A stretch of DNA of 64,000 nt from Verrucomicrobiota bacterium (GCA_038205745.1 JBBRBM010000004.1:1529-65528); one strand, 5' to 3'; numbered from the stretch's first letter, positions 6,653 to 50,900 are shown. Numbers and translations: made by a program. The notes: a model not told the origin generated them from the sequence alone.

Positions 6653-6659
6653 AAAATAC

Positions 6660-6690: not shown

Positions 6691-6704
6691 GAGAATATGT
6701 CGAA

Positions 6705-7646
6705 TCAGGGCGAGGTGATCCCGTTGAATGATCCGGTCACGGTGATGACTGCCGAGGCATCGTCCTCATCTTCCGCTGTGAAGGTGAAAGTCCCGAACAT
6801 TGATTTGGTCGCTGGATTGTAAGTGACCTGTGCGGTGCCATCGGGTCGGCTTGCCTTAACAAACGAGCGGCCACCGGGCCCTAATTGTGCAATCACGAAA
6901 TCGTAGAACGTGACCGGCACAGTGCTGGTTCCCGGGGGAACGCCGCCCAAGGTAAACGCGACCTGAATGAAGCCGTGGGTGGACGGGTTCGCCGCGCCAT
7001 TCACGATGAAAACGTTGTTTGGATATGCGAGAATAACGGCACCGAATGTCTTGAAAGATTTGCTAACAGCCCCCGCAGTCTTTCCGGAAATTTGCGCGGG
7101 TGGCGCTTGAACAGCGAGCGATTTGTTCACCAGTTTGTCCGCCACCGCCAGCTTCTTGGTCGCCGTGGAAATCGCTTTGGCGATGGCGGGATAATTATCA
7201 GTCTGGAAGTTGAGCAGTGTGTAAACGAGCGCAATGTTCCGCGCGGCGGCGGTGCGAGTGCCGGAAGGGAATGCGTTGTTCAAGCGGTTTGAACTGGCAT
7301 ACGCATTGTCCTCGGCGAGGAAAAAGAAATATTCCATCACGTTGTTCATGGCTCCGCTCAAATCATTCGAGACGGACGAGCGCGCAAGGGCGCCGATGAG
7401 AGTGCTCAGTGTTTTGGTGTCGGCAGAAATGTTCGTGACCACCGTTTTGTCGATGGTGGCGATGGCTTTTTTTAGCGCGGCGACGGCTTTCTTGTCAGGC
7501 GCAAGAATTCCATTCGTCGCGTTATAGAGCGCGTCTGAGACGGCTGCGCGGAAGGCTTCCATCTCTGTGGCTGGGTTGGTGATGGCGCGCAGGTTTGGAG
7601 TTGCGAACGTCAGTACGAGCAGTGCAAGACAGTAGATTTTTTTCAT
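6705..7646 (-). CDS. secreted hypothetical protein
   Basis: Start moved to MKKIYCLALLVLTFATPNLRA (signal peptide). The upstream part of ORF 6705..7880 runs through repeat R-A. No recognisable domain. Confidence 0.5.
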   Translation of the reverse strand: MKKIYCLALLVLTFATPNLRAITNPATEMEAFRAAVSDALYNATNGILAPDKKAVAALKKAIATIDKTVVTNISADTKTLSTLIGALARSSVSNDLSGAMNNVMEYFFFLAEDNAYASSNRLNNAFPSGTRTAAARNIALVYTLLNFQTDNYPAIAKAISTATKKLAVADKLVNKSLAVQAPPAQISGKTAGAVSKSFKTFGAVILAYPNNVFIVNGAANPSTHGFIQVAFTLGGVPPGTSTVPVTFYDFVIAQLGPGGRSFVKASRPDGTAQVTYNPATKSMFGTFTFTAEDEDDASAVITVTGSFNGITSP

Positions 7647-7796
7647 TACGGGGTTCTTATCGTCGTTTGTTCGCGCGGTGTTTAGCGGTTCGCAGACAAA
7701 ACACAACGGCAAACTCGCCAGATGTACAGTGCTGGGAGCGATCGTTCGATCGCATGCATCGGCGGAAGGGAGCGCGTGTCGCAGCTTCCACCCCAA

Positions 7797-7878
7797 GAAC
7801 CGTAGCAGCCGACGTAAGGAGGCTCTGACTTCTTTTCCCGAAAACAGAATGGCCTCCTTACGTCGGCTGCTACGGTTC
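7797..7878. repeat. palindromic repeat family R-A copy 1: perfect 27-bp inverted repeat
   Basis: GAACCGTAGCAGCCGACGTAAGGAGGC (7797-7823) and its exact reverse complement (7852-7878) flank a 28-nt loop. A diverged copy lies at 28130. Confidence 0.85.
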
Positions 7879-7906
7879 AAGCGCCCGGCACTTTCAATCG
7901 CATCCG

Positions 7907-9610
7907 TTAGTGCTGCGGGGCTCTGGGCCGCAGGCGCTTCGCGATCTCAGTGGCGCTGATGCCGTTGATTTCTTCGATCTGCTTCCACGACTTCACGAGG
8001 TCCGTGTGCAGCACGCGAACATCACACCAAAGCAATTTCACAGGCGCATTGCGGAGCGGAGACAGATCAGTGATGCGCGTGTTGTCGCAGTGCAATTCGG
8101 CGAGCGGCATGCCGGCCAGCGGCGTCACGTCGCGGACCTTCGTGTCGGCGATGTCGAGTTCGCTCAATGGCATCCCGCGCAGCGGTGCGAGATCATCCGC
8201 CTGGGTGCCAGCACAGTTGAGAACTTTCAGCGGAAGCATCGCGAGCGGCTTCAAGTCCCGGACCGGGTTCCAACTGCAATCGACTTCCTCCAATTCGCTC
8301 AACTCCTCGAGCGGCGACAAATCGGCGAGGTTGCCATGCCGTTTGGTGGCGGAGGCGCCAGCGCAACGGAACAGGCGCAAATGTGGCAACGCGGTGATCG
8401 GCCAGAGATTGGTCACGCCGAACGATGGAAACGAAAGCTCCGTGATGATTTCGCCTTCGAAGGTGAATTTCTCCTGGCCCGTGAAGGCGGGATTCAATTC
8501 GCGCATTTTCATCATCACTGCCTCGATGCGATCGAGCGGAGAAAGCTTGCGCACCATTTCGACAAAATCGCGGCGATCGCTCGGGTCTGCCAGCGTGATC
8601 AGGTTTGAGCGCGCTTCCGTCGGGCGTCCGCTGACTTTTGAATAAACGTAACTGCACGCGATGAGGATCAGTGCGATCGCCGCAATCACGTAAGCGAGAT
8701 GCGACCTTCCGCCGGAGCCGTGTTCCTCAGCCATCCGCCGACGCTGCCGCGCATCACTCGACTCCCACCGCTCGGCTTCGTCACGGGCGAGAAGAATTTG
8801 TGCGATCAACTCCGCGTAGCTTTGCGGTCGCGCATCGCGGTCTTTCATCAGCATGCGCGCCAGCAATGTCTGGATCGTGCCCGGGCAATCCGGCAGCAAC
8901 GTATGCAGCAATGCGGGTTCATCGTTCACGTGCTTCAGGATGACGCTTACAAAGTCGGGCCCCTCGAACACCATTCGCCCGGTCATCATGTAGTGCAGCG
9001 CACAGCCGAGGCTGTAAATGTCCGCGCGAAAATCAATGTCGCGATATCCATGCGCCTGCTCGGGGCTGATGAAATGCGGCGAACCCATCGTGTGTCCGGT
9101 CATCGTCATGCTCGTCACGCCTTCGCGCAAAATTTTCGCGAGACCGAAATCGCCGAGCTTCACCGTGCCATTCGTGGCGAGAAAAATGTTGTCTGGCTTC
9201 ACGTCGCGATGAATGAGCTGCGCAGTTTGCCAGGCGTAGTCGAGCGCAGTGGCGACGTGATAAGCGATGTCGAGCGCCTCAGTGATGGGAAGACGGCCGA
9301 AGCGTTTCAGCCGCTGTCCGATCGATTCGCCCTCCACATATTCCATGGCGATGAAGCGAATGCCGTCGTGTTCACCGGCAGCAAACACCTGGACAAGATT
9401 CGGATGATTCAGACTCGCGGCAGCGATGGCTTCGGTTTGGAAGCGCGCCGCCAACCCGGCGTCATCGGCGATGTGAAGCGGAAGAATCTTGAGGGCGACA
9501 ACGCGTTGCAGCGAAAGCTGGCGCGCCTGGTAAACGGCGCCCATGCCGCCGCGGCCGAGTTCGCCGAGGATCTCGTAATCTCCAAATTGCTGCCCCACCT
9601 TGAGCGCCAT
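7907..9610 (-). CDS. Ser/Thr protein kinase with a TM segment and C-terminal leucine-rich repeats
   Basis: Kinase motifs GRGGMGAVY, HRDVKPDNIF, DFGLAK, SPEQ. TM helix LAYVIAAIALILIACSYVY. C-terminal LRR-like units (LSPLEELSELEEVDCSWNPVRDLKPL...). Confidence 0.85.
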   Translation of the reverse strand: MALKVGQQFGDYEILGELGRGGMGAVYQARQLSLQRVVALKILPLHIADDAGLAARFQTEAIAAASLNHPNLVQVFAAGEHDGIRFIAMEYVEGESIGQRLKRFGRLPITEALDIAYHVATALDYAWQTAQLIHRDVKPDNIFLATNGTVKLGDFGLAKILREGVTSMTMTGHTMGSPHFISPEQAHGYRDIDFRADIYSLGCALHYMMTGRMVFEGPDFVSVILKHVNDEPALLHTLLPDCPGTIQTLLARMLMKDRDARPQSYAELIAQILLARDEAERWESSDARQRRRMAEEHGSGGRSHLAYVIAAIALILIACSYVYSKVSGRPTEARSNLITLADPSDRRDFVEMVRKLSPLDRIEAVMMKMRELNPAFTGQEKFTFEGEIITELSFPSFGVTNLWPITALPHLRLFRCAGASATKRHGNLADLSPLEELSELEEVDCSWNPVRDLKPLAMLPLKVLNCAGTQADDLAPLRGMPLSELDIADTKVRDVTPLAGMPLAELHCDNTRITDLSPLRNAPVKLLWCDVRVLHTDLVKSWKQIEEINGISATEIAKRLRPRAPQH

Positions 9611-28254: not shown

Positions 28255-30432
28255 TCATTGCCTCTCCTTCGCGTCTCCGCTTCTCTGCGCCTCTGCGTTG
28301 ATCGGCAGTTCGATCGTGAAGCAGCTTCCTTTGCCGACTCCGCTCTGCACCCGCACGCGTCCGCCGTGCGCCTCGACGATGTGTTTCACGATGCTTAGAC
28401 CAATTCCCACGCCTGGAGTTTCGCGGCGCAGTTCAGAACCGAGTCGATAGAAGCGCTCGAAGATCTTCTGGTGCTCGGCAGCGGCGATACCGGGGCCGTG
28501 GTCGCTGACGGCGAGGAGCCATTGAGGATTGGGGATTGAAGATTGAGGATTTTGGATTTTCAAACTCACGACGACTTCTTCTCCGCTGGGCGAATGCTTG
28601 ATCGCATTGTCGATGAGGTTCACGAGCGCTTGTTGGATAGCGGCGCCGTCCATCAAAGTGCCCCCGGCATCTTGCCGGGTTTCAGCTTCATTGGTCATCC
28701 CGGCCCGGCAAGAGGCCGGGGGCACGTTCACGACCAGCCGCACGCCGCGTTCCGCGCTGTACGGTTCCATGAGCTTCACCGTCTGCTCAACGAGAGCGAC
28801 AACATCCGTCGGCTCGAACTCGTATTCCTTGCGCCCCTGCTCGATGCGCGCGAAGTCGAGGACGTTTTCTATCATCGATGACAGCCGACGGCATTCCTGT
28901 GTGATGAAGCGGAAGTATTCGCGCTGCTTGGCCGGGTCGGAAATTTTCCCGCGCTCCAATCCCTCGGCCATCAATCGCACCGAGGCAATCGGCGCGCGCA
29001 ACTCATGCGACACGCTGGAGACAAAGTTGGATTTCATCTCCGCGAGCCGGAGTTGTTTGTGAAACGCACGCCAGGCGAAGAAGAAACCAATGATAGAAGT
29101 GGAGGCGGCTACAACGATGAGTAGTCCAAAGGCAAATACACGCGCACGCTGACGAGTGAACAGGAGATCAGGCCGGGATAGATGCGCGCCAACCGTCACA
29201 TATACCCTGCTCCCCATCGCTTGATTCGCCGACGCCAGCGCGGACTCCGCGTCTTTCGGAACAACTCCATACCACGAGCGCGAACCGACTTGTCCGGTGT
29301 TGGCGTTCTTGATCAGAAATTGCTCATTGATTTCAAGCGCATCACCCGCCACGGCGACGGTGAACTCCATCCAGTCCGGGTGCCGGACTCTTTCCAATGT
29401 CTGACGGACGAGGCGGGTTGTTTCAGCACGGGTGCGAAAGAACATGCCTTGCTCGCCAGAACGAAAGGCGAACCACAAGTTGTTGGTCACGAAATGGTTT
29501 GTCACTGGACACCAGACCCTGAGCGCAGATGGCGTCATGACACTGTAGCCTGTCGTCCACCGTACAAACTGCCCCCGCGCAATCTGGTGCAAGCCACGCA
29601 GCATTTCCTCCCGCTCCCACACTTCCCGCCAATGACGCTCAATCTTTGGGGCGCGATTCGCCGTCACCGAGTTGGAAGGTGCGGCAAGTCCGCACGCGCG
29701 CACCGCCAGCAGGATTGCGTCCGAACGCTCCGTTGGATTCGTGACACAACTTGAAGCCACGAACTCCAGAGGAGGCGGTTTGAACTCAAGCAGTTTGAGC
29801 AAAGCCAGTGTTCTCAAATCCCCACCACTTTCACCGAATACCGGTTCCAGTTGGGAGGCAAAGTTGCTGTAACTCAGCAAGGCGGCGTTGGTATTTCCCG
29901 CTTCAAGATATAGTCGTGCGCGGTCAAATTCCGCCGCCGCGCGAAAGCGAAGCGGCGGTTCCATCTCGATGAAATGCTGCCACTCGTTGAGGGCACTTTT
30001 ACTCGTGGATGGCGTTGCCTGAGATCGCCGGGCTCGCCATGACTCGATCTGGCCGGCTTGAAGCGCAGTTTCATCCAAAGGTTCAAGGGTCAGTGCTGTT
30101 TGGGAGGGTTTGGGCCACTTCAATCCGCCGTCCGTATCGAAAGCGATCAGTCGGCTCCAAATGGGATTGGGAGAAACCGTGGTGTTTTGCGGAAAATCCG
30201 GGAACACCGACAGGTCACCAATGGTTGGACTCTGCAAAGCTTCCCATACGAGGGGCGCAGCTTCATCCGCAAGTTCTGCGGCGCGAGCTTCGGCTTCACG
30301 CCGTGCGGACTTTTTATCCTGCTGGAGCGTGAACCCACCAAGCAACGCCAGCACCAGCATCGGCGCGAGGATGAGCACGCCCTGCCAGAAGAAGCTCGGC
30401 TTGCGGTTGGTTCGTTTCACGGGGTCGGCCAT
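28255..30432 (-). CDS. sensor histidine kinase with a large periplasmic domain
   Basis: Two TM helices flank a sensor region of about 400 aa. H-box SHELRAPIASV, N-box LVNLIDNAIKHS, G-boxes DHGPGI and GVGIGLSIV. The CDS contains repeat copies R-H and R-B. Confidence 0.85.
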   Translation of the reverse strand: MADPVKRTNRKPSFFWQGVLILAPMLVLALLGGFTLQQDKKSARREAEARAAELADEAAPLVWEALQSPTIGDLSVFPDFPQNTTVSPNPIWSRLIAFDTDGGLKWPKPSQTALTLEPLDETALQAGQIESWRARRSQATPSTSKSALNEWQHFIEMEPPLRFRAAAEFDRARLYLEAGNTNAALLSYSNFASQLEPVFGESGGDLRTLALLKLLEFKPPPLEFVASSCVTNPTERSDAILLAVRACGLAAPSNSVTANRAPKIERHWREVWEREEMLRGLHQIARGQFVRWTTGYSVMTPSALRVWCPVTNHFVTNNLWFAFRSGEQGMFFRTRAETTRLVRQTLERVRHPDWMEFTVAVAGDALEINEQFLIKNANTGQVGSRSWYGVVPKDAESALASANQAMGSRVYVTVGAHLSRPDLLFTRQRARVFAFGLLIVVAASTSIIGFFFAWRAFHKQLRLAEMKSNFVSSVSHELRAPIASVRLMAEGLERGKISDPAKQREYFRFITQECRRLSSMIENVLDFARIEQGRKEYEFEPTDVVALVEQTVKLMEPYSAERGVRLVVNVPPASCRAGMTNEAETRQDAGGTLMDGAAIQQALVNLIDNAIKHSPSGEEVVVSLKIQNPQSSIPNPQWLLAVSDHGPGIAAAEHQKIFERFYRLGSELRRETPGVGIGLSIVKHIVEAHGGRVRVQSGVGKGSCFTIELPINAEAQRSGDAKERQ
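28521..28560. repeat. tandem octamer repeat family R-H copy (GGATTGAG-type) inside the histidine kinase CDS
   Basis: ATTGAGGATTGGGGATTGAAGATTGAGGATTTTGGATTTT, read on the minus strand as ..KIQNPQSSIPNPQ.. just before the G1 box. Confidence 0.75.
28658..28725. repeat. palindromic repeat family R-B copy 2 inside the histidine kinase CDS
   Basis: GTGCCCCCGGCATCTTGCCGGG ... CCCGGCAAGAGGCCGGGGGCAC, read on the minus strand as ..PPASCRAGMTNEAETRQDAGGT.. between VRLVVNV and the N-box. Confidence 0.8.
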
Positions 30433-31968: not shown

Positions 31969-32032
31969 AACCACGGAATACACTGAAAACACGGAAGAGA
32001 ATACTTCTGTGTGCTCCGTGTATTCCGTGGTT
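31969..32032. repeat. palindromic repeat family R-F
   Basis: AACCACGGAATACAC ... GTGTATTCCGTGGTT with an inner stem. Located 15 nt after the lysA stop. Confidence 0.7.
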
Positions 32033-32391
32033 AACACAGTTCAGTTGCCGCCATCTGAAATCCCGCCCGCCCCGGTACGGTTTCGCCGCCGACTTTCCCG
32101 AGCCATTGCCATGGCCTGCTCGACCTCGCGGCTAACGAAAGTTATTTGAGCGGTCGCCTGAAGGATGTTTGAACTTCACATTGGAATAAGTCGCGTGTGA
32201 TGAGTCCTCGGCCACGTCTGGCATGACGCGCTTCTACAGGAATGGACGGCGTGTGAAAACTTTCTTTGCCATGACGCTGCCGCAGAACTTCGAGCCAGAG
32301 ATTACATCGTCTTAACAAACTCGGCGTTCCCGCACACACGCCATTAACACACGGCTTGTTAATTCCCCTCGTGAAGCTTGAGGAACAACAC

Positions 32392-33302
32392 ATGGGAACA
32401 ACAACGCTCCGGGCCGGGTGCGCGATGATCGCGCTATTGCTTTCGATTCAAACAACGCACGCCGCTGATCCACGGACCAACTCCTGGTTCACGACGTACT
32501 CTGGCAAATACGCGCGCGCCTACACCAACGCCGCCGCGCAAACCGCGAACAACGCGACCGCCATCTGGAACAACGGCTCGCAAGCGCAAACACTTCCTGC
32601 TTACGCAGGGGTTCAGGAAATTTATTCGTCGAGCAACTGGGTTTACATCCGCACCACCGGAGTGGGCGCGCATACGATGGGGCCGTACGAACGATTACTC
32701 GCCGCGCATTTGAATCTGCCCAGATCACGCCAGAGAAGATCGGCATGGCGCTCGAATCGTTCCTGCTCACGCTTACGTCGTTTGATTCGAGGTTTGATCG
32801 CGCGATGCGCGGCGAAGAGGAGTTCACCACCGACGAGAAGCGCGGCTTTGAACTGTTCATGACCGAACGCGATCCACGGCGCGGGCAATTCGGCGCGGAT
32901 TGTTTTCACTGCCACGGCGGCCCGCTGTTTCAAAGCCAGAGCTTCGCGAACAACGGACTCGACGCGGAGCCAAAGGATCGCGGTCGTGCGAGCATCACCG
33001 GCAACTGGAACGATGAAGGCAAATTCGCCACGCCTTCGTTGCGCAACATCGCCCTCACCGCGCCCTACATGCACGATGGACGATTCGCCACGCTGGAGGA
33101 AGTGATCGATCACTACGGCACGGGCGTAAAGCGCAGCGCCACGCTCGATCCGAATCTCGCCAAGCATCGTGAGGGCGGGCCGCATCTCACAAGTGAAGAC
33201 AAGCGCGCCCTGGTGGCATTTCTGAAGATGCTCACCGACGAGAAATATCTTGAGCGAAAGACAAACCTCGCGGGCGCGGACAACTCCGAGGAGAAATTCT
33301 AA
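32392..33302 (+). pseudogene. chimeric/truncated di-haem cytochrome c peroxidase-like gene
   Basis: Frame 1 (32392..32862) gives a signal peptide plus NSWFTTYSGKYARAY..VQEIYSSSNWVYIRTTGVGAHTMGPYE and then nonsense. A second frame (32745..33302, open from about 32690) gives only the C-terminal haem domain (CFHCH, PSLRN, APYMHDG). The first haem domain is missing. Confidence 0.6.
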
Positions 33303-33496
33303 GAGCCGGTCTGAAAATTCGGGATGGGTAGCACAGGCCACTGGCCTGTGCCGTCCGGCGACTCGCCGGACGGAACGGGGATGACGCCTCCATCAACTAG
33401 GTCAGCGCTTTTCCTTGCGGACGTCTCACCCCTCCGGTCGGCGGGTCGCCGACCGGAACAGGCCGGTGGCCTGTTCCACCCTTTTTCAGACTGGCT
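33303..33496. repeat. composite palindromic element R-C (two inverted half-elements)
   Basis: Half-elements GCACAGGCCACTGGCCTGTGCCGTCCGGCGACTCGCCGGACGGAACGGGG and the reverse complement of GGAACAGGCCACCGGCCTGTTCCGGTCGGCGACCCGCCGACCGGAGGGG. Outer arms are AGCCGGTCTGAAAA and TTTTCAGACTGGCT. Confidence 0.8.
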
Positions 33497-34414
33497 CTAA
33501 GGCACAAGTATCTCGCGGCGAAGACGACCGACGAACGTGGATGGCAACCGTCGGTCCATTGATCCAACGACCGGGCGCTCGCGTTCCACATGGCCATCTA
33601 CGAAAGCAACGTTCGCACGCTGACGATGACGAAAGTGCGCGTTCGGATAACTCCACGGTGAGTCGTCGTAGTCAACGTAGTAGAATTCCTCCAGCATCGG
33701 ATTGTCCGGAGACGCGGGCGACTGAAAGTCATTGACCTGCGCCGCGTCAGCGAACAGGCACACCGAGGATGTGTCGCGAAGTTTTTGAATTGTGAATGGC
33801 GGCTGTCCGTTGGTGGACGAGATGTGGCGGTTGTAACCGTAGCCATACGCCGCGCCACGCGCCTTCAATTTGAACCGGGCATCGCCGTAGTTGAGTGACG
33901 GACAAATTTCCACGCCACGCCCGAGCAGATACGGATAGAGCACGCCATAAGTTGCATCGAAGGCACGCTCGCCTTCGTTGCCGTTCTTCAGCCAGCCGAA
34001 CCAGAAGACGACGCCATTGTTCGTGGGGAAATCGCTGAAGGCGAAGGTGCGTCCCTCGTTGTCGTCGAAATACATCTGCGCGGCGAGACCGAGCTGGCGG
34101 AGATTGTTCACGCACTTGATGCGTTGCGCGGTTTGTTTGCTTCCGCTCAACGCCGGGAGCAAGAGCGCGGCGAGAATTGCAATGATCGCCACGACCACGA
34201 GCAACTCGATCAACGTGAACGCTTCCTTCCGCGTTTCGCCTTCCTGTGCGGCGATCACGCGGCACAAACATTCCGGGCACAGGCAGTCATGGCTGGAATC
34301 AACTTCGCGCAATCGCGGGAACTCCAAACACCAACAGCGCGTCGGTGCGGTGTCGGCGTGACCCGAGAAGTGTGTCTGGCACTTCGGACAAACTTTTGCC
34401 TCGGGCGTGCTCAC
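33497..34414 (-). CDS. DUF1559-type pseudopilin-like protein (prepilin-type N-terminal methylation motif, H-X9-DG) with an N-terminal Cys-rich CWC-type extension
   Basis: [24 protein letters not shown], and [13 protein letters not shown] (H-X9-DG). N-terminal CPKCQ..CWC..CLCPECL. The GTG start at 34414 overlaps the upstream stop as GTGA. An internal GTG at 34258 would give a classic short leader [20 protein letters not shown]. Confidence 0.8.
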
Positions 34415-35508
34415 GGTTTCAGTGCGTTGACGCGATAGAAGGCGCGGGTTGCCGGTGTGTTCGTGTCTTGCAACAGCAACACTCCGCCACTTCCCGTGTT
34501 GGTCGCAGACGCCGCGCTCCAAGTGGCGAGATCACTTGTGCGTTCGAGAACGTAACTCCAGTTCGTGCGACTGATGAACTGCGCGCGCCATGTGCCATTC
34601 GAGCGTGTGCCACTGTAGTTTTGCACCGGGGGATCGGGCACCTTCACCACCAGATTGTCCACCGTTCCATGCGCGAGCACCGAGCCCCAAAACTGCGGGT
34701 TCCCGAACTGCGCCGCGTCGCAGTAACTCATGATCGCGAGCGAATCGCAGCGAAAATCCGCCGTCGCACTGAGCACGAGATCCTTGATCACGCCGAAGAC
34801 TGCGCCGTTCTTCGTGATGAGCGTCTTCAACGTGCGGTTCGTGGCGGTGAACATCATTTCGATGTGAAACAAATCATTCGTGGTCATCACGAGCGGGTGA
34901 TTGTCGCTGAAGTAGATCAGGTGATTCGTGGCGACCACCGTCGGCGCGAAGGTGGCGCCGAAGCCGGAGTCGGGGAAGTAATCGAACTCCACGAGATTGC
35001 GCGGCCCTGTCGCCGTTTGTCCCGCGCCGCGGAAGAAGTTCGTACCAATGGCATTCGAGAAGTTCATGAACCCGATCGCAATCTCGAACGTGTATGACTT
35101 GTTGCTGGTGGTGCCGATCGCGATGTCACGCAGCGTCAGATCGAAGGCGACGCCGAAATCATCGCTTCTGGAGATGATCGTGCGGAGCGGCAGCCAGAAG
35201 TAACTGTTCGTACGCGAAGAGTCCCAGGTCACTTCCATGTTCTGGTCCGTGGCGTTCCAGCGGAACAACGACGCGTCGCCGGACGAACGCCAGCCGCGCG
35301 CGGATGGATCGGTGGAAAAACTCTCACCGATCGTCACGGCGCGCAGCGCCGACATCAGCATCGCGAACACGAGCACGACGAATACGCCGCGGGCTTGGTG
35401 AAGGCGCGAACGACAGGCCGGAACGCGGACGGTCACGTCCGCCAGTTTTAGAGCGGATGTTCGCGCGGACGTGATCGTCCGCGCTCCGCGCTCCGGATGT
35501 TGGTTCAT
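34411..35508 (-). CDS. secreted hypothetical protein with a C-terminal ..W..FYRV module
   Basis: Start taken at MNQHPERG. Hydrophobic core [16 protein letters not shown]. No known domain. The 5' end contains repeat R-D, so the start is uncertain. Confidence 0.5.
35420..35487. repeat. palindromic repeat family R-D copy 1
   Basis: GGAACGCGGACGGTCACGTCCGC ... GCGGACGTGATCGTCCGCGCTCC. Confidence 0.8.
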
Positions 35509-35542
35509 GATGAGCGGCATCGGATATTGCGCGCACCACCGG

Positions 35543-36313
35543 TCAGTCCTTCCGCCGCGGCGCACGGCGGGCCACGGCGGAGAAAGCATCGATCTCGGCT
35601 TTGCCTTCGATCACTTCCACGCGCACGTAGCGAACCCACGGAAGACGCACACGACGTCCATGTTCCGTTTGCGCGTGGCGAATGTTGAACCCAGTGCCGC
35701 CAGCCGAACCTTTGTAGAGCGTGCGGATGTCTTCAAGCGTCGCGCCGGCGAAGTCCTCTTGCGTCAGCGAGGGATCGACGGGGATATCGAAGCGGCCTTC
35801 GCTGTCAGGAGGAAACAGTGCGTCAAGGAGCGGCGTGGGTTCGGGATCGAGCGCATAAAACTTTCTTCCATTCGCGCTCACGGAAACCCGTGTCACACCG
35901 GTGTTGTTGGCGAACAGCGAACTGTCTGTCGCAGGTGTGCCGATGTAAGTGAACGTGTTCAGATCGAACTCATTCGTCACAATGAACCCGGCGTTGCCGA
36001 AGATGATGAAGTCGAGACCGAACGGCTTGTGCGGCACGTCGAAGATTGGCTTGTGAAACTTGATCGTGATCGAGCCACCCGCGCCGATCGAAGCGATTTG
36101 ATTTGTGCCGTATGGCGGATCAAACGGATCAATCGCCTCGCCGAACGGCGCGACGCGCGAAGGTTCGCCGAGAACAGACTGCCCATTGGTAAATCCGGCG
36201 GCGAAGCCTTCGCCGGGATTGTAGCTGATGACCGAAACGGCGTAATTCGTGGCCGCGACGGTGTTGAGGACGATGCTGGAACAAGCCAGCAGAACGAGAC
36301 TGAGTTTCTTCAT
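35543..36313 (-). CDS. secreted hypothetical protein, first gene after the cobalamin riboswitch
   Basis: Start moved to MKKLSLVLLACSSIVLNTVAA (signal peptide). The ORF-track start is a TTG further upstream. No known domain. Confidence 0.6.
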   Translation of the reverse strand: MKKLSLVLLACSSIVLNTVAATNYAVSVISYNPGEGFAAGFTNGQSVLGEPSRVAPFGEAIDPFDPPYGTNQIASIGAGGSITIKFHKPIFDVPHKPFGLDFIIFGNAGFIVTNEFDLNTFTYIGTPATDSSLFANNTGVTRVSVSANGRKFYALDPEPTPLLDALFPPDSEGRFDIPVDPSLTQEDFAGATLEDIRTLYKGSAGGTGFNIRHAQTEHGRRVRLPWVRYVRVEVIEGKAEIDAFSAVARRAPRRKD

Positions 36314-36391
36314 GCACTGATCTTTCTCTGGCGCGCGAACGAATCGTTCGTGCGCGGGTTTCAAGTTGAGAGGACCAGTGCGGTGGGGCTG

Positions 36392-36429
36392 AAAACAAAA
36401 CAGCCTTCACTCGCAAAGAGAATGAAGGC
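36392..36429 (-). terminator. intrinsic terminator of the riboswitch expression platform
   Basis: On the minus strand: GCCTTCA, a 13-nt loop, TGAAGGC, then TGTTTTGTTTT. An upstream segment AAAGAGAAGGATGAGGC can pair with GCCTTCATTCTCTTT as an alternative helix. Confidence 0.65.
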
Positions 36430-36711
36430 ATTCGACTTCCGTTCCGCACTCGCGGAACGGACTGGCCTCATCCTTCTCTTTGACGGAGAAGTGGTTCGAC
36501 GAGCGAACCGGACGAGCGAAGCCAAACCGGTATCCTGACTGCGGGCTTTGCCTCACTCCCACCTTCCCGATTTCTCAGTGGCGTTCGCGCGAAAGATTTT
36601 CGCGGCGGAGTTCGTATCCCGACACAGTGGCGTAACCGTCCCGGATTCTCACCGGGTTCCCAGACATTTGACTGCGTGACATCCCGCACTCGCGGGACTC
36701 TTTCAAAGAGC
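36430..36711 (-). promoter_or_regulatory. cobalamin (B12) riboswitch
   Basis: The minus strand reads GGGAACCCGGUGAGAAUCCGGGACGGUUACGCCACUGU ... GCCACUGAGAAAUCGGGAAGG ... AAGCCCGCAGUCAGGAUACCGG. This matches the conserved core and B12 box of the cobalamin riboswitch family as I remember the consensus. No covariance model was run. Confidence 0.85.
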
Positions 36712-36717
36712 GAGACG

Positions 36718-36746
36718 TAACTACGCCCGAGAAAAAATTCTGCCAA
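36718..36746 (-). promoter_or_regulatory. candidate sigma-70 promoter for the riboswitch transcript
   Basis: On the minus strand: TTGGCA (36746-36741), a 17-nt spacer, then TAGTTA (36723-36718). Confidence 0.35.
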
Positions 36747-36772
36747 GCCATTTTTTGTAATTCTCTGCGCGC

Positions 36773-36834
36773 GGAGCGCGGACGGTCACGTCCGCGCGAA
36801 GAAGTCGTCTTGCGGACGTGACCGTCCGCGCTCC
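36773..36834. repeat. palindromic repeat family R-D copy 2 (perfect 23-bp arms)
   Basis: GGAGCGCGGACGGTCACGTCCGC, a 16-nt loop, then GCGGACGTGACCGTCCGCGCTCC. It ends 2 nt before the mutL stop codon. Confidence 0.85.
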
Positions 36835-36836
36835 GG

Positions 36837-38738
36837 TCACTGCGCGCGACCGAATTTCTTTTCCAGCTCGCGGAAATTCATCTCGATCAACGTCGGGCGT
36901 CCGTGTGGGCAAGTGTATGGCATGGCGCAGTGCCGAAGGTCCTGGAGCAGATTCTCCAACTCGGGCCCGTCGAGCGGATCGTTCGCCTTCACTGCGTGGC
37001 GGCAAACTGTTTTCGCAACGACATGTTCGCCGAGGCGCATCGAGTTCACCTGTTCGCCTGCAGCTTTTAACTCGTCGATCAAGCCCAGCACGAATCCGCG
37101 TGGCTCCGTGGACTTCACAAACGGCGGCAGCGCGTCGAGCAAAAATGTGCGCTCACCAAACTCGCTCAAACCGACACCGAGCCGCGTCAACGCGTTCAGA
37201 ATCCCACGGACGAATGTCGCATCACGTGGCGACAACTCGATCGTCTCGGGCAGCAACAATCGTTGCGACGCCACCTCGCCGCGTTCCGTGCGCTCCATCA
37301 TTTGCTCGAAGAGAATGCGCTCGTGAGCCGCGTGTTGGTCGAGCAGCACGAGACCGCGATCTGATTCGAGCACGACGTAGAGCTTTCCGATGACGCCGAC
37401 GATGCGCAGCGGGACGGAGAGCAACGGCGTGACGGGGGATTGAGGATTGAGGATTGAGGATTGGGGATTTGAGATTGCCGGAACTGGGCGTGCGGCTTGT
37501 GCGCGCTCTTCGGATTCGCGGCGGAATGCGAGCGGAAGCGGCGCGGTGATGGACTGCGGCGGTGCAGGCGTGATCGGCGGCAATTCCGGCAAACGGAGTT
37601 CCGGCGAGCTAATCGGTTGGGCAACTTCATTTTGCGCTTTTTGAACTACAGGCTGCGGCGGCGATGCGCTTGCTCGATGGAATCCGAGCAGCGCTTCCTT
37701 CACTGCTTCCGTCACAAAGCGCCGCACCGCGCGTTCGTCGCGGAACTTCACCTCGCGCTTGGCGGGATGGATGTTCACGTCCACCGCAGCGGGATCGATC
37801 TCGATGAACAAACAGCACACGGGGAATCGGCCCTTCATCAGCGCTGTGTGATAGCCTTCGAGCAATGCGTGATTGAGCGTGCGGTTCTCGACGGGACGAC
37901 GGTTCACGAAGAGATGCTGATCCTCGCGCGTCGAGCGCGCCACGCCGGGTGCGCCAATCAATCCCCACACGCGAACGTCAGACTTCGATCCGTCTGTGTG
38001 GCCAGTTTCGTCAGCCGCAAACTGTTCATGCAGTGGACCGCTCGCATCCACGGCAATCAACTGAGGCAACGTGCCGGCGAGCTGGCGCATGCGCTCACGC
38101 ACTGAATCAATTCCCGCGTTTGATTTCACCGCCGACAACTGCCACACCGTGCGCCCGTCCTTTACAAACGTGAAAGCCACGTCCGCGTGCGCCAGCGCGG
38201 CCAGTGTGAGGTAATGCTGGATGTGCGCCGACTCGGTTTCCTCGCTGCGCAAAAACTTTCGCCGCGCCGGCAAATTGAAAAACAACGAGCGCACTTCCAC
38301 GCTGGTTCCCGGCGCGCTGCCCGCCGCTTTCACTTCGATGATCTTGCCGCCGTTGATGATCACCTGTGCGCCTTCCGGTGAATCGCCGTCTTGTTCGCGC
38401 GTCGTGAGCGTGAAGCGACTGACGCTCGCGATGCTCGGCAACGCTTCGCCGCGAAAGCCCATCGTGGCGATGCTTTGAAGATCTTCCGCGCGCTGAATCT
38501 TGCTCGTGGCGTGGCGCTCAAGGGACAACAACGCGTCGTCGCGGCTCATGCCCATTCCGTCATCCGTCACGCGGATCAATGATCGCCCGCCTGCTTGGAT
38601 TTCGACGCTGACGCGCGTCGGCTTGGCATCGAGTGAGTTTTCGACGAGTTCCTTCACCACGCTGGCGGGGCGCTCGACGACTTCGCCAGCCGCGATCTGA
38701 TTCGCGACGTGTTCGGGGAGAAGACGGATGCGGTTCAT
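36837..38738 (-). CDS. mutL: DNA mismatch repair protein MutL
   Basis: N-terminal IRLLPEHVANQIAAGEVVERPASVVKELVENSLDA (GHKL ATPase). C-terminal dimerisation domain. Confidence 0.9.
   Translation of the reverse strand: MNRIRLLPEHVANQIAAGEVVERPASVVKELVENSLDAKPTRVSVEIQAGGRSLIRVTDDGMGMSRDDALLSLERHATSKIQRAEDLQSIATMGFRGEALPSIASVSRFTLTTREQDGDSPEGAQVIINGGKIIEVKAAGSAPGTSVEVRSLFFNLPARRKFLRSEETESAHIQHYLTLAALAHADVAFTFVKDGRTVWQLSAVKSNAGIDSVRERMRQLAGTLPQLIAVDASGPLHEQFAADETGHTDGSKSDVRVWGLIGAPGVARSTREDQHLFVNRRPVENRTLNHALLEGYHTALMKGRFPVCCLFIEIDPAAVDVNIHPAKREVKFRDERAVRRFVTEAVKEALLGFHRASASPPQPVVQKAQNEVAQPISSPELRLPELPPITPAPPQSITAPLPLAFRRESEERAQAARPVPAISNPQSSILNPQSPVTPLLSVPLRIVGVIGKLYVVLESDRGLVLLDQHAAHERILFEQMMERTERGEVASQRLLLPETIELSPRDATFVRGILNALTRLGVGLSEFGERTFLLDALPPFVKSTEPRGFVLGLIDELKAAGEQVNSMRLGEHVVAKTVCRHAVKANDPLDGPELENLLQDLRHCAMPYTCPHGRPTLIEMNFRELEKKFGRAQ
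37435..37476. repeat. tandem octamer repeat family R-H copy inside the mutL linker
   Basis: GGGGATTGAGGATTGAGGATTGAGGATTGGGGATTTGAGATT, read on the minus strand as ..ISNPQSSILNPQSP.. Confidence 0.75.
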
Positions 38739-42986: not shown

Positions 42987-43027
42987 CGGGCGCCAAGGTA
43001 GCGAAACGTCAGTTTGCTGCAATGAAG

Positions 43028-43104
43028 AGTAATCAGTAATCAGTGAGTCAGTGTTCAGCGCTCGGCCTTTCACTGATTACTGTTTCACTGATTACTGATT
43101 ACTG
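43028..43104. repeat. palindromic repeat family R-E copy 2
   Basis: AGTAATCAGTAATCAGTGAGTCAGTGTTCAG ... CTTTCACTGATTACTGTTTCACTGATTACTGATTACTG. The right end contains the pyrF stop codon. Confidence 0.75.
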
Positions 43105-43809
43105 CCCTGCCAGCGATTCCCAAATGGATTCCGCCGCCGCGCGCGGATTCGGCGCGGCGTAAATCGGCCGGCCAATCACCAGCCAGCTCGCGCCGGCGTC
43201 GATTGCTTCGCGCGCGCTGAGCGTTCGCTTCTGGTCACCGGCGGCGTCGCTGCCAGCGCGAATGCCAGGCGTCACAAACTGCATCTCGTGTGGAAGCGAT
43301 TGGCGGAGTCCCGCGACTTCGAGCGGCGAACATACCAATCCGCGCAAGCCCGCCCGCGACGCGAGTTGCGCGAGCCGCTCCACTTGCCCGCCAACACTCA
43401 CGGTCAGTCCCACCTCGGCGAGATCGTCACCGCTCATGCTCGTAAGCACCGTGACACCGAGGATCAGCGGTGCATTCAGGCCCGCTTGTGCCGCGGTTCT
43501 CTGCGCCGATTCCTCGGCCGCTTGCATCATGGCGAGCCCACCGCTGGTGTGGATTGTCAACATCTGCACATCGAGACGCACGGCAGACGCGACGGATTTT
43601 GCGACTGTGTTGGGAATGTCGTGAAACTTCAGGTCCAGAAACACCGCCGCGCCCGTCGCACGAATGCGGCGCACGATCTCGGGCCCTGCCGCCGTAAAAA
43701 GTTCGCTGCCAATTTTAAACGCACCGACTGCTGGCGCAACTTCTTGCGCGAGGGCGACGGCTTGTTCCGCAGTGGGCACGTCGAGGGCGACGATGATCGG
43801 ATTCTTCAT
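43099..43809 (-). CDS. pyrF: orotidine 5'-phosphate decarboxylase
   Basis: Start moved to MKNPIIVALDV. Motif DLKFHDIPNTV. Confidence 0.9.
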   Translation of the reverse strand: MKNPIIVALDVPTAEQAVALAQEVAPAVGAFKIGSELFTAAGPEIVRRIRATGAAVFLDLKFHDIPNTVAKSVASAVRLDVQMLTIHTSGGLAMMQAAEESAQRTAAQAGLNAPLILGVTVLTSMSGDDLAEVGLTVSVGGQVERLAQLASRAGLRGLVCSPLEVAGLRQSLPHEMQFVTPGIRAGSDAAGDQKRTLSAREAIDAGASWLVIGRPIYAAPNPRAAAESIWESLAGQ

Positions 43810-46820: not shown

Positions 46821-49796
46821 TTACTGCGTCGAGATGAAGTAGAACTGGCGCGAAGCCGACGGTGCCCCAACATTGAAAATGCCGCTCGCATTCGTGAACA
46901 ACGAGCCGTTCACAACGCGGAACCTGTTCGTGATCTCTGTTGCTTGCCACAACGTCGAGACGTGCCCGGGTGTGGCCGGGAAAGTAATCAACGCCGTGTT
47001 GGTGACGACTGAGCTGGTGACGTCCGGACCGGCCACACTCGCAGGCGCCAGCGTGAACGCACGGTTGTCGTACTGCGCATTGGGAGACGCGAGGTTCGTC
47101 GAGATCCACTGTTGCGGCACAAACGGGCTGTTTAAGCTCGGGAAACGCGAGATCGAACTGCTCGTGCCAACGTCAGCGCCTTGGTAAACGACCCGCGTGA
47201 CCAGCCTGCCAGAAGCGTTCCGAAGTGCGACGGTTTCTGAGCCGGTGTTATTGAGCGACAACGTCGTCGAACTCGCAGATTGGCTCATGCCGGAGATGCC
47301 GGGATTGAATCCGTTCAGCGGTCCGCCATAGAGAATGAACGCGTTCGACGAAGGCACCGAAAAGAAGTCACCAAATTCGTGGCGCAACTGCACCGCGTCG
47401 TAAACGGTCCATCCGACGAAGTCCAGGGCGCTGGGTGAAAGGTTCACGACTTCGATGTATTCATCGTTGATCGAGAAGGAAGAAGCGGAGTTGGTTGCCC
47501 AGTCGGCGCTGCGCTTGAGCGGATTGAAATAGACCGAGTTCGTGGCCGTTGCCGGGTTCGCGAGAATTTCGCTGATGACCACCCCCTGCTCTGCGACCGT
47601 CGGCACGTTATTCGTCCAGTATATGTCTTTGGTGGTCGTGGCGTTGGCAACGGTGAGTCCGGGTGTGTACACGTTGCCTGCCTCTGCCCCGCTCGGCTGG
47701 AACGTGAAGGTCGCGGTGACATTGGTGCCAGTCGTCGCGCCGTAGCTCCATGAGGCAGTCGCAGGCAAGCCATTGGAAAGCGGCGTGATGGTGCCGCCGT
47801 CCGGATCGGTGACGCGCACAGTCATCGTGAGTTTCTCACCAGTACGGAGCGCGTTCTCAACGAAGATATTTGTCGGAAGGTCGCCGGGGCGAATGAGATT
47901 GGAGAGAAAGTTCGTAAAGCGAACCAAGGGAGCTTTTGAACTGCTGATCACTTCAGCATAGCGGCTCGGGATCAATTGATAGCCGCTGGTGCGGGGATTC
48001 GAGTTATCGAACTGGCCAAGCACGCCGAGGATCGTCACCGCGTCAGTGGGTTTCGATTGGCCGACCAGATCGGTCTGCGCATTGATGAACAAGGTGAAGG
48101 TCTGACCCGAGCTGTTGGTGACGAGATACGTCGCACCACTCGCAAAGGTCGGCACGGTCAGGTCGATAAAAACATTTGAAGCCACGACGTAGCTTCCTTC
48201 AAGCGGCTCCATGACAACGGGGTCGTTCTGCGACGCGAACGGGATGTTGATGGGGGCGGGAATCGGATTGTTGCTGCTAATCACGGAGACGCTGTGCGAC
48301 GTGTTCGTGTAGGTCAGTGTGAGTTCCAGCAAACCATTGAACTGCGTCAACGGGCCGGTCACGCGGACTCGATCGCCTGCGTGAGGCAAGGCATTGTCCG
48401 GTGCGCCAGACCAGAACACCGCGATGCCCGCCGTGGTGTCCTGCATGTAGAACAACAAGCTGCCGGTGCCAGTGAGCGACGCGTAGGTGGTCACGATGCC
48501 TTCAACCGTAAAGAGCGAAGTCGTGTTGGTGGGCGTGTAATTCACCATTTCCTGAAGCGAGCGCACGTAGGCGATGTTCGTTGCCGGAGGTGGAATGACA
48601 GTGAGCGTCGCCAACAGACTCGTTGCCGAGCCCACGGAGTTGGTGATAATGACGTAGTAGGCACCCGCATCATTTGTCGTGATGGAATTCAAGGTGAGGG
48701 CCGAAGCGGTGCTGGCAACGCCGCCAGTGGGATTAAACCAACGGTAGAAAAGCGGGGGTGTGCCGGTCACGCCCACGTTGAAAACAATCGTGTTGCCGAC
48801 AATGCCAGTTTGGCTCTGCGGTTGGTTGGTGATGCCGGGAGCCAGTGGCGTTTCGACCACCGTCAGGACGGCGACGCGGCTGGTCACTGTGTTGACGCTG
48901 TTGCTGACGATGACCGAGTAGTTGCCGCTTTGCCCCGCCGTAACGCTGTTGAGGACCAAGGTGTTGGAATTTCCACCGACGAGCGTGCTGGCGAAGAACC
49001 AGTAGTAACTCAAAGGATCATTGCCGCCGGCGATGGTCTTGAAGGTCACCGTCACACCCGCCGCCACGTTCGTGTCATTCGGCTGCACGGTGATGAACGG
49101 CGGATTCAAACTGCCGGGAACGACATCTGCGAACGTGGTACCAACGACGAGATTATCTACCGTCAGGATTCCTTCACCCGCGGCTTGGCGAAGGGCGAAG
49201 GACGTGACTGTGATGATGCCTGGTGCGTCGTTTCCCGTGGAGCCAGTCGAAAGTTCAGAGGACGGACTTAACCAGATCGTGCTGACGCCGGTTGCCAAAA
49301 TGTGTCGGATCACGATTCGGTAAGTCGTGTTCAGAGAGAGGTCGGTCAGGATGTTTGTTGCCGTTCCTGAGTTGTTGGCGATGCCGATCCGAAAAGAACC
49401 TGCGGTCGCACCTGTGAGATTTGCGAAAATGCGGGCGCGGAACCCTGTGGAGTTATCCTTGAAATGCGCGAAATAGGCGCCGCCGGACGTCGGTAACGAA
49501 GAGAAGTTGACGTCGAATGCGGCGTATAAGGCACCCGTCGAGCTTGAACTCGCGTAAGGGCTGTTCGTCAGTGCCGCGTTCACGTCATCGGCAAGACTTG
49601 CAGAAATTTGCGCCAATCCCGACGCAACGTTGAAGCCTGGTGTTGCGGCACTGCCGCTGTGCATGACCCATTTCCCAGCCGACACGTTCGTGAGCGGGCC
49701 GTATCCGTATGTGAAGCTTTCCTGAAGGATGATCGTGGCGCCCGCGCGGGTCAGGAACAACAGCGCGGCACAGAAGAGTGCGAGTTTCAGTTTCAT
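46821..49796 (-). CDS. large secreted protein with Ig-like domains and a lamin-tail-like domain
   Basis: Start moved to MKLKLALFCAALLFLTRAGA. Two Ig-like modules (..GNDPLSYYWF..SGNYSVIVSNSVN.. and ..PPLFYRWF..AGAYYVIITNSVG..). Lamin-tail-like segment VVISEILANP..NDEYIEVVN. Confidence 0.7.
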   Translation of the reverse strand: MKLKLALFCAALLFLTRAGATIILQESFTYGYGPLTNVSAGKWVMHSGSAATPGFNVASGLAQISASLADDVNAALTNSPYASSSSTGALYAAFDVNFSSLPTSGGAYFAHFKDNSTGFRARIFANLTGATAGSFRIGIANNSGTATNILTDLSLNTTYRIVIRHILATGVSTIWLSPSSELSTGSTGNDAPGIITVTSFALRQAAGEGILTVDNLVVGTTFADVVPGSLNPPFITVQPNDTNVAAGVTVTFKTIAGGNDPLSYYWFFASTLVGGNSNTLVLNSVTAGQSGNYSVIVSNSVNTVTSRVAVLTVVETPLAPGITNQPQSQTGIVGNTIVFNVGVTGTPPLFYRWFNPTGGVASTASALTLNSITTNDAGAYYVIITNSVGSATSLLATLTVIPPPATNIAYVRSLQEMVNYTPTNTTSLFTVEGIVTTYASLTGTGSLLFYMQDTTAGIAVFWSGAPDNALPHAGDRVRVTGPLTQFNGLLELTLTYTNTSHSVSVISSNNPIPAPINIPFASQNDPVVMEPLEGSYVVASNVFIDLTVPTFASGATYLVTNSSGQTFTLFINAQTDLVGQSKPTDAVTILGVLGQFDNSNPRTSGYQLIPSRYAEVISSSKAPLVRFTNFLSNLIRPGDLPTNIFVENALRTGEKLTMTVRVTDPDGGTITPLSNGLPATASWSYGATTGTNVTATFTFQPSGAEAGNVYTPGLTVANATTTKDIYWTNNVPTVAEQGVVISEILANPATATNSVYFNPLKRSADWATNSASSFSINDEYIEVVNLSPSALDFVGWTVYDAVQLRHEFGDFFSVPSSNAFILYGGPLNGFNPGISGMSQSASSTTLSLNNTGSETVALRNASGRLVTRVVYQGADVGTSSSISRFPSLNSPFVPQQWISTNLASPNAQYDNRAFTLAPASVAGPDVTSSVVTNTALITFPATPGHVSTLWQATEITNRFRVVNGSLFTNASGIFNVGAPSASRQFYFISTQ

Positions 49797-49840
49797 GATT
49801 CGTGAGTTTTTACGGTTAAGTGGGAAGCGGGAAGGTAACT

Positions 49841-50704
49841 TTAAAGATCGCGATTTGGGTTCCACCAAATGTCGCCGTTCAGCTTTTCGTCACGGATACA
49901 AGTGGGGTTCTTATTGAATACGTAGTCCCGATCAAATGCTGCAGAATGACCATCGAGAAAGACAAGGATTCCCCGGCCACTGTGACGTTTGGGAAAGTAC
50001 GCCCAACGAACGGCGGGCTGAATTCCGTTTTGATTTGGCGACGCTACGTAGTTTTCCAAACTCGGACTGAATGTCGTCTCCGTCAGAAGCACCGTTTCGG
50101 ATGGCCTCCGCATTGAGCCCAGCCGGGGCATGTTGGGATAAACCGCACTGTTACCGACCACGCCGTTGCAAACGCTACTGTTGAGCTTGAGATCGAGATT
50201 CAACGCGTAGCTAAAAAATCCAAACTTGCCATTCGCCAGGAACGTATCGCCGGAGGCTGCCTTTGCCGTGGGGCAATGCCACATATTCCCTATACCATTG
50301 CCCGGGAACGGCATCGAAAGACGGTAAGGCGGTGTCGCACCGTTAAAACTATTCGACAGCGGCCGGTCGGCGACATTCGGTGGAAGCTGATTGAACCATG
50401 CGTTGGCATCGTTCGGACTTCCGGGACCAGTTGTTGCACCGCTGAAGGCGGCGAACGAACCACTTGCATCCGTTCCATCGCGCGGAAGTGCGTCTTCGTT
50501 GTCAGTCGCGTGAAGATGCAGAGCAATCCCCCATTGACGCATGTTACTCAAACACTTCGTCTGTTGCGCTTTGGCCTTTGCCTTGGAGAGCGCTGGCAAC
50601 AGCAGCGACGCGAGGATGGCGATGATCGCGATGACGACGAGCAATTCGATCAGCGTGAATGCTGAACGCGAGCTTCGAGGGGCTTTGAAGAATTTGGGTT
50701 TCAT
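49841..50704 (-). CDS. DUF1559-type pseudopilin-like protein
   Basis: Start moved to [41 protein letters not shown]9-DG motif ([13 protein letters not shown]). Confidence 0.85.
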
Positions 50705-50900
50705 CTTCTGCGGGGACGCCACCGCACGGGCCTGCACGTAAACAAATTTCCAGTCCGAGGGCAAGGCGGGGTTCGGAAACATATTCGCAACGGATGTGTG
50801 AATAACTGCGAGCGGCATGTCCATCCAGATTTAGTACGTCTAGGTATTATCTGGTTGCGGGCCGCCTGACGCTGCCGGATAGTGCGGGCGCTTGGTAAGG

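Follow-up and report, generated by a model that had tools for sequence, protein, structure and literature searches.

The closest described counterparts of the system reported here, a riboswitch-controlled three-gene operon in a 64,000-nucleotide (nt) stretch of DNA from a Verrucomicrobiota bacterium (GCA_038205745.1 JBBRBM010000004.1:1529-65528; this whole stretch is called the window), are the BtuH and BtuGH proteins of Bacteroides thetaiotaomicron (BT1956, BT1488 and BT1490). BtuH proteins are surface lipoproteins encoded beside btuB and btuG, and they have been reported in gut Bacteroidota and a few Firmicutes (PMC8941943; PMC13616437). The BtuJ/DUF4465 proteins (PDB 9FCT; D5EK51 of the verrucomicrobium Coraliomargarita) are secreted B12 scavengers with a beta-jelly-roll fold. 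They are linked to riboswitches or to transporters and are known in bacteria of the Planctomycetota-Verrucomicrobiota-Chlamydiota (PVC) group (bioRxiv 10.1101/2025.08.21.671476). The locus in the window resembles the BtuB-BtuFCD regulon of Proteobacteria in its OFF-switch cobalamin riboswitch and in the BtuF-like genes present in some orthologous operons, but its three proteins, here called A, B and C, match none of BtuB, BtuF, BtuC or BtuD in Pfam or NCBIfam. It resembles the BtuH/BtuGH system more closely: A has remote but significant sequence and fold similarity to the B12-binding domain, and the two systems have in common B12 riboswitch control and a probable accessory role to a core transporter.

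We read the operon as a B12-repressed, B12-starvation-induced corrinoid capture module of PVC bacteria and put the probability of this reading at roughly 0.65. Corrinoid binding, the location of the proteins and the role of C are its predicted parts. The genes and their control elements are as follows.

35543-36313, minus strand: gene A, an open reading frame (ORF) with the bounds given when the DNA was first read by itself (the sequence-only reading).
34411-35508, minus strand: gene B, taken in its longest reading from ATG 35508; start uncertain.
33497-34414, minus strand: gene C, with a GTG start at 34414 in a GTGA overlap with the stop of B.
36508-36686, minus strand: cobalamin riboswitch aptamer (RF00174), a match to the Rfam covariance model.
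36393-36480, minus strand: expression platform of hairpins and an intrinsic terminator, from a terminator scan, with a fold z-score of -4.3.
36429-36403 (stem) and 36402-36393 (U-tract), minus strand: the terminator within that platform, from the terminator scan.

The aptamer scored 58.1 bits with RF00174 (gathering score 31.5; E = 8e-12) in a match that spans the whole model (positions 1-189), and the cobalamin riboswitch was the sole Rfam family to reach its gathering score anywhere in the window. The B12 box, AGUCAGGAUACCGG, and the conserved core are both present in the window sequence. The terminator-like hairpin at 36429-36403 is followed by TGTTTTGTTT, which places an intrinsic terminator 80 nt 5' of the start of gene A. 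Its stem, GCCTTCATTC...GAAGGC, and the T-run that follows have the same sequence in most of 55 orthologous loci. The sequence-only reading had proposed this riboswitch, quoting its core and B12 box, together with a terminator platform, and both proposals were borne out, the first by the Rfam search and the second by the terminator scan and the conserved stem. These features show an expression platform that can switch expression off, with a conserved terminator as in an OFF-type B12 riboswitch; its response to ligand is predicted. The segment AAGAGAAGGAUGAGGC at about 36465-36481 is a possible antiterminator, judged by sequence complementarity.

The same reading had placed a promoter upstream of the aptamer.

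36718-36746, minus strand: candidate promoter hexamers TTGGCA-N17-TAGTTA, from sequence only.

The hexamers exist, with TTGGCA at 36746-36741, TAGTTA at 36723-36718 and the N17 spacing between them, but their status as a promoter is weak. The candidate is unproven because TAGTTA agrees with the -10 consensus TATAAT at only two of six positions and because a sigma-70 promoter scan of 32000-37500 returned no site.

To define orthologous loci, one genome per GTDB species was scanned with an alignment of A, which gave 58 loci. Nearly all of them are labelled Verrucomicrobiota, Limisphaerales or Pedosphaera, the taxon labels of metagenome-assembled genomes being the depositors' own. Every locus that could be tested (55/55) has an RF00174 match immediately 5' of A and in the same orientation; the other three of the 58 were left out of this test because their contigs end within about 200 nt of A. 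Chance linkage is excluded, since all 55 carry the riboswitch at the same place. Gene B directly follows A wherever the contig is long enough, and of the 48 loci with sufficient sequence beyond B, 47 have an orthologue of C next. In 38 of those 47, C begins before B has ended, with a 4-nt overlap (ATGA or GTGA) of start and stop, so the GTGA coupling seen in the window is typical. No conserved flanking genes (such as btuB, TonB or type II secretion system (T2SS) genes) were found around the 58 loci, and because the flanks are not conserved the riboswitch with A, B and C makes up a self-contained conserved operon. The three-gene, same-strand operon inferred from the window is thus real and is co-conserved with its riboswitch and terminator, and the suggestion that its homologues would recur downstream of cobalamin riboswitches holds in all of the testable Verrucomicrobiota loci. 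For A as for B, homologues number in the hundreds to thousands; none is named, and the two often lie on one contig.

Gene A encodes a protein of 256 amino acids that is predicted to be secreted, with a Sec signal peptide visible in the alignment. The peptide is of type I, and its cleavage site is AxA-like. Neither Pfam nor NCBIfam gave anything useful for A, even when all members of the A1 and A2 alignments were scanned at E-values up to 10. Comparison with known structures was more informative. The AlphaFold2 (AF2) model of A has a mean predicted local distance difference test score (pLDDT) of 72 and a predicted template modelling score (pTM) of 0.74. When it was compared by Foldseek with 350,542 PDB chains, the top three matches were 8blw_B, 7biz_B and 7biz_A, all with a probability of 1.00 and E-values of 7e-7 to 6e-5. 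8BLW is the BtuB1-BtuG1/BtuGH complex of B. thetaiotaomicron and 7BIZ is BtuH2 bound to B12. The next matches were unrelated CBM32-like domains with E > 4e-3.

Profile comparison gave the same answer. Profile A3, built from A and its distant relatives found by an exhaustive hidden Markov model search, was run against 177,635 PDB sequences, and its two best matches were 8blw_B (E = 5.3e-8, over two colinear stretches) and 7biz_A (E = 6.4e-3), the two entries that hold BtuH-type domains. An hhalign comparison of A3 with the BtuH2 domain gave E = 2e-5 and a probability of 76%, over a local alignment of only 36 columns. The narrow profile A1 matched the PDB weakly (E = 0.013 and 0.18) and the BtuH2 domain with an hhalign probability of 13.6%; significance needed the broader A3. 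Taken together, the profiles and the predicted model show A to be a remote homologue of the B12-binding domain of Bacteroides BtuH/BtuGH. The sequence-only reading had described an operon with no known B12 gene. That description stands insofar as A, B and C have no match in Pfam or NCBIfam to the BtuB, BtuF, BtuCD, Cob/Cbi, MetE or Nrd families, but it fails for A, whose BtuH kinship appears in the profile and Foldseek searches. This kinship could not have been known earlier because Pfam and NCBIfam are blind to it.

For residue-level comparison, the C-terminal domain of BtuH2 was rebuilt from a frameshifted Bacteroides-like contig (L059), and its numbering was checked against the published contact residues. 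On that contig the BtuH2 gene (2437-4200) has many frameshifts, and the layout of riboswitch, DUF4465 (BtuJ-like) gene and PKD-BtuH gene is as expected. A and BtuH2 share two blocks, SLG-GG--tV-F----N---DF-i-GNA and GSG--G--I--A----G----L--I-F[IV]. In the first, the GNA block, the invariant N107 of A aligns with Asn399 of BtuH2, a residue that helps to coordinate the metal site at which the B12 phosphate is held; the reported contact residues of BtuH2 are Gln333, Asn399, Phe401, Glu406, Tyr475/His476, Tyr510/Trp511, Asp522, Trp577, Ser582 and Glu584 (PMC8941943; PMC13616437). Among the residues of BtuH2 that contact corrin, phosphate or metal, only the GNA motif (Asn399) falls in a block that aligns with A.

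The BtuH domain occurs alone, with immunoglobulin (Ig)-like domains or with a beta-propeller, and the PVC proteins cover the same range as A, A-B (with its Ig-like domain) and A fused to a PQQ_2 propeller. The differences lie in targeting and in company: A has a plain signal peptide and no linkage to btuB, and it is found constantly with a lectin-like protein, a pseudopilin and a Cys_rich_CWC (CWC) domain. Neither A nor B showed a relationship to a DUF4465/BtuJ protein in hhalign, and Pfam DUF4465 matches none of A, B or C, which sets the operon apart from the BtuJ scavengers. A GTPATD motif in A recalls the GTPAYF loop of BtuJ; this likeness was dismissed, since the two motifs stand at different positions. 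The A family comprises 1263 clusters at 50% identity (E up to 1e-3).

The constant neighbour of A is better defined by its predicted fold than by its sequence.

From about 35350 (mature part), minus strand: gene B protein, predicted by AF2 and Foldseek to be an exported ConA/legume-lectin-like jelly-roll with a C-terminal Ig-like domain.

The AF2 model of B has a pLDDT of 86.7, and Foldseek matched it to legume lectins at about E = 1e-7; Pfam and NCBIfam gave no useful match. B has more than 1400 homologues. Of 150 cluster representatives in the A family, 22 have A and B in a single polypeptide, as do L036 and L047. Such fusions are frequent, were absent from the sequence-only reading, and are strong evidence that A and B would act together.

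Gene C combines two domains, and its features in the window are as follows.

33497-34414, minus strand: gene C protein, a Cys_rich_CWC leader and a DUF1559/HX9DG type IV pilin-like pseudopilin (Pfam/NCBIfam).
33500-34219, minus strand: mature pseudopilin, with an F+1 TLIE+5 LLVV hydrophobic helix and a globular domain (alignment to pilins and GspG).
33584-33637, minus strand: HX9DG motif of C (NCBIfam TIGR04294).
34265-34390, minus strand: Cys_rich_CWC domain, residues 9-50 of C (Pfam PF14375).

Three domain models matched the pseudopilin above their cut-offs, namely N_methyl (PF07963; 27.6 bits, cut-off 21.2), DUF1559 (PF07596; 26.3 bits, cut-off 23.3) and HX9DG (TIGR04294; 21.5 bits, cut-off 19), so the assignment of C to the DUF1559 pseudopilins was upheld for the prepilin motif, the DUF1559 segment and H-X9-DG alike. 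The prepilin motif consists of A-1, F+1 and E+5, with Ala at -1 as in many orthologues. C aligns with pilins and GspG from residue 66, and the motif residues are conserved in 45 orthologues. The suggestion that all three products are exported agrees with the alignments, which have Sec-type signal peptides in A and B and the prepilin motif in C.

A single PVC genome has from tens to hundreds of DUF1559/HX9DG paralogues, and we know of no function for the family. The orthologues of C in this operon are 49-72% identical over their full length, and the DUF1559 paralogue in the window has only the N-terminal 60 amino acids (the pilin helix) in common with C. These comparisons show the predicted globular part of C to be specific to this operon, and C to be a dedicated partner of A. 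That paralogue, a second DUF1559 pseudopilin at 49841-50824 on the minus strand, lies directly upstream of a gene (46821-49799, minus strand) whose secreted product of 992 aa contains Ig, lamin-tail and DUF5689 domains. This genome may generally pair pseudopilins with secreted binding proteins.

C shares with T2SS pseudopilins and with type IV (competence) pilins the prepilin cleavage and methylation motif, F+1, E+5 and the hydrophobic helix. It differs from them in its leader, which is not a short basic peptide of 5-30 residues but runs to 65 residues and contains a folded-looking Cys-rich domain (leaders of orthologues range from 4 to about 121 residues). It differs also in belonging to the DUF1559/HX9DG expansion of PVC bacteria and in being under the control of a vitamin riboswitch with no assembly genes nearby; neither the operon nor the flanks examined contained any.

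The CWC domain in the leader of C had not been noticed in the sequence-only reading. The window copy just equals the Pfam cut-off of 24, at 24.0 bits, if C is taken from GTG 34414; in the longer ORF its score is 21.9 bits. The domain is nevertheless real in the family, because orthologous copies score 46-49 bits with PF14375. A motif scan located CWC in 30 of 59 loci, the window locus included, making it a fourth module of the operon. It takes three forms: a stand-alone gene between A and B (12 loci), a fusion to B (9 loci) and a fusion to C (9 loci, including the window). Wherever it is fused, it stands ahead of the hydrophobic export segment, that is, the signal peptide of B or the pilin motif of C, and for this reason CWC is predicted to be cytoplasmic. 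The stand-alone version is a two-domain Cys-rich protein, Cys_rich_CWC with DUF5522, bearing the motif YH-RRGYCCGNDCRHCPY. We noted CWC+DUF5522 between A and B in L023, L027, L030, L034, L038, L041, L042, L045, L048, L050 and L051, and at the N-terminus of B in L049, L052 and L053. The Sulfurospirillum gene cluster for cobamide biosynthesis has been described to include a CWC protein, which lies between CbiA and SirC and is co-induced with the cluster (PMC7755780). Our searches found no literature on DUF5522, and none on this module or on any tie of pilins, DUF1559, CWC, DUF5522 or PEP-CTERM to cobalamin riboswitches.

Among the more distant members of the A family are proteins tagged with PEP-CTERM or dockerin and fusions with a PQQ_2 beta-propeller (P0341, P0353), the latter reminiscent of BtuGH; P0387 had no match in the PDB. 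We distinguished six types of distant locus.

L060: A, two pseudopilins and a pyridine-nucleotide oxidoreductase.
L061: A, DUF6580, a BtuF-like Peripla_BP_2 protein and a Diphthami_syn_2-like ATPase.
L062 (Planctomycetota): A, a pseudopilin, a BFD-like ferredoxin, CWC and the same oxidoreductase as in L060.
L064: an A-propeller fusion and a pseudopilin.
L065: A and a propeller.
L067 (Phycisphaerales): A and a pseudopilin.

RF00174 lies upstream of A in five of these six types, all of which had upstream sequence long enough for the comparison; two of the six are from Planctomycetota, one of them with the riboswitch. The pseudopilins of L060 and L067 are 26-35% identical to mature C over about 205-240 residues. 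That of L062 aligns with C over 54 residues and is 38-40% identical to the L060 and L067 copies over its full length. The locus comparison shows that the predicted four-module operon is conserved across two PVC phyla.

Several of these operons include genes with a bearing on uptake. An ATPase gene and a BtuF-like Peripla_BP_2 gene lie between B and C in L005, a member of the Verrucomicrobiota set, and L070 has the ATPase. The proposal that this is a corrinoid capture or uptake module has gained strong comparative-genomic support, the BtuF-like Peripla_BP_2 genes in both L005 and L061 included. The ATPase is a Diphthami_syn_2-like PP-loop protein, found with or without the BtuF-like gene at L005 5131-6898, L061 3231-4942 and L070 11807-12461, and it suggests an ATP-dependent step, possibly amidation, in corrinoid salvage. 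DUF6580 of L061 is a membrane protein. The Planctomycetota-type operons end in L060 at 7388-8431 and in L062 at 6112-7819 with genes for a BFD-like [2Fe-2S] protein, CWC and a pyridine-nucleotide-disulfide oxidoreductase, the last of which is 74% identical between the two loci; these operon ends hint at a link between B12 capture and a redox step in the cytoplasm. No TonB-dependent receptor gene was found within 10 kb of the A operon in L069 or L070.

If the operon is a capture module, it would work as follows. When cobalamin cofactor is plentiful, the RF00174 aptamer would be bound, the terminator would form and transcription would stop before A; when B12 is scarce, the operon would be transcribed. 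A, a Sec-exported, stand-alone BtuH-type domain, would bind corrinoid, with the lectin-fold and Ig-like protein B as its physical partner. C, translationally coupled to B, would anchor, present or move the A-B binder in the cell envelope. CWC, which is a cytoplasmic leader of C here and elsewhere part of a CWC+DUF5522 protein or of the B N-terminus, would take part in some step on the cytoplasmic side. The captured corrinoid would then be handed to an importer encoded elsewhere, with a BtuF-like protein supplied by the operon itself in some relatives.

A serious though unlikely alternative is that A and B are released from the cell by type II secretion as a "cobalophore", C being a pseudopilin specific for this cargo, and that the loaded complex is recaptured by a TonB-dependent BtuB encoded elsewhere. 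C has at its N-terminus everything expected in a T2SS pseudopilin or type IV pilin, A and B carry ordinary Sec signal peptides and no membrane anchor, the PEP-CTERM and dockerin tags of distant A relatives imply an extracellular location, and the operon has no transporter genes of its own. Against release, no T2SS machinery gene is linked to the operon, canonical T2SS substrates need no private pseudopilin, and the strict one-to-one pairing of A with C together with the translational coupling of B and C suggests a stoichiometric complex, not a catalytic part of an exporter. Competence pili are a precedent for fibres that can carry a ligand inward. It is a speculative and rather doubtful extension that DUF1559/HX9DG pseudopilins in general are ligand-specific parts of a pilus-like machine for nutrient capture and import. 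A pseudopilus built from C or tipped with it would carry A-B through the outer membrane and return with B12, dispensing with a TonB-dependent BtuB, and CWC (with or without DUF5522) would be a cleavable cytoplasmic leader that receives or reduces the corrinoid.

We consider it quite improbable that the system is confined to the periplasm, with C as a bitopic inner-membrane anchor and A-B serving as a buffer for stored B12 or as a relay to a BtuF/BtuCD-type importer. Such an arrangement would accommodate the lack of an outer-membrane targeting signal in A and B and the BtuF-like Peripla_BP_2 genes inserted in the operons of L005 and L061, and the CWC fusions put a cytoplasmic domain on the B or C polypeptide, as anchoring in the inner membrane predicts. 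A periplasmic binder would, however, duplicate BtuF, the PEP-CTERM and dockerin tags of relatives point outward, and those BtuH proteins that have been characterised work on the cell surface (PMC8941943). That the operon is B12-regulated but serves something other than B12 acquisition, for example as a surface adhesin or glycan-binding module for times of B12 scarcity (lectin-like B, CBM-like A), is very improbable: B does resemble sugar-binding legume lectins, CBM32 domains come next after the BtuH entries in the Foldseek ranking of A, and the binding site of A is predicted only, but A finds its best matches, in sequence and in structure, specifically among B12-binding BtuH domains, BtuF-like genes join the operon in relatives, and riboswitch control spans two phyla.

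Several observations weigh against the capture module that we favour. The structural match of A to the BtuH entries is local, its TM-scores are low (0.35-0.41), and four loops of the A model have a pLDDT below 50. The corrin-contacting loops of BtuH2 (475-522 and 577-584) have no sequence alignment with A, and because these corrin-ring loops do not align, conservation of the binding site in A is unproven. A has no lipoprotein signal, a Cys in the signal peptide not being conserved among orthologues. No link was detected between B and any B12-binding family, and its sequence ties it to no other family either. At the level of the locus, no btuB, TonB or ABC importer genes lie within 3-10 kb in most cases, L042 is a complete locus without C (the exception to the A-B-C order), and L067 and L068 have no detectable riboswitch. 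In the window itself, A and B are separated by a strong palindromic hairpin, through which their expression could become uncoupled.

That hairpin and the edges of the operon account for the following features.

35419-35488, no strand assigned: palindrome resembling repetitive extragenic palindromic (REP) elements, with 24-nt arms, lying after A and ahead of the conserved part of B; seen in the sequence and absent from the sequence-only reading.
33455-33477, no strand assigned: hairpin at the operon end, common to a convergent MbnH/MauG-like gene; from the terminator scan and the sequence.

The palindrome encodes codons 8-30 of B, inside the annotated N-terminal extension, and the start of B is uncertain because the element occupies this annotated N-terminus. 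ATG 35508 agrees with the NCBI gene call P0121, and B orthologues align only from about residue 30-60. In the closest orthologous locus, L001, the A-B spacer is 26 nt and has no room for the palindrome. A sibling of the element lies at 36772-36835, after mutL; it is the same REP-like element, with arms of 24-31 nt, and no match between two such copies (35419-35488 and 36772-36835) is expected by chance. The second copy, a long palindromic hairpin, and mutL mark the upstream limit of the operon. At the other end, the convergent gene encodes an MbnH/MauG-like di-haem peroxidase (32356-33302, plus strand) and is split over overlapping frames at 32356-32862 and 32745-33302, which suggests a frameshift, a pseudogene or a sequencing error.

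Elsewhere in the window, a second palindrome family (GTGCCCCCGGCATCTTGCCGGG and its complement) occurs at 5640-5714 and 28655-28728. Both copies are inside long ORFs, the first in a gene for an M28 peptidase/PD40 protein (3611-6652) and the second in a histidine kinase gene (28255-30432), and they look like in-frame insertions of the kind known as Rickettsia palindromic elements. An intergenic segment at 43019-43105 holds a short run of AGTAATCAGT-like repeats with imperfect inverted repeats.

The kinship of A extends the BtuH-type domain from gut Bacteroidota to environmental Verrucomicrobiota and Planctomycetota; at 50% identity this family forms more than 1200 clusters, and it is invisible to current domain libraries. 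The operon also provides the first ligand-linked, riboswitch-anchored context for a DUF1559/HX9DG pseudopilin, with A-B as the probable partner and B12 as the probable ligand. It ties the orphan Cys-rich domains Cys_rich_CWC and DUF5522 to B12 physiology, and it presents an unusual arrangement in which a folded-looking domain serves as a prepilin leader or stands ahead of a signal peptide. These features bear on how PVC bacteria acquire large cofactors.

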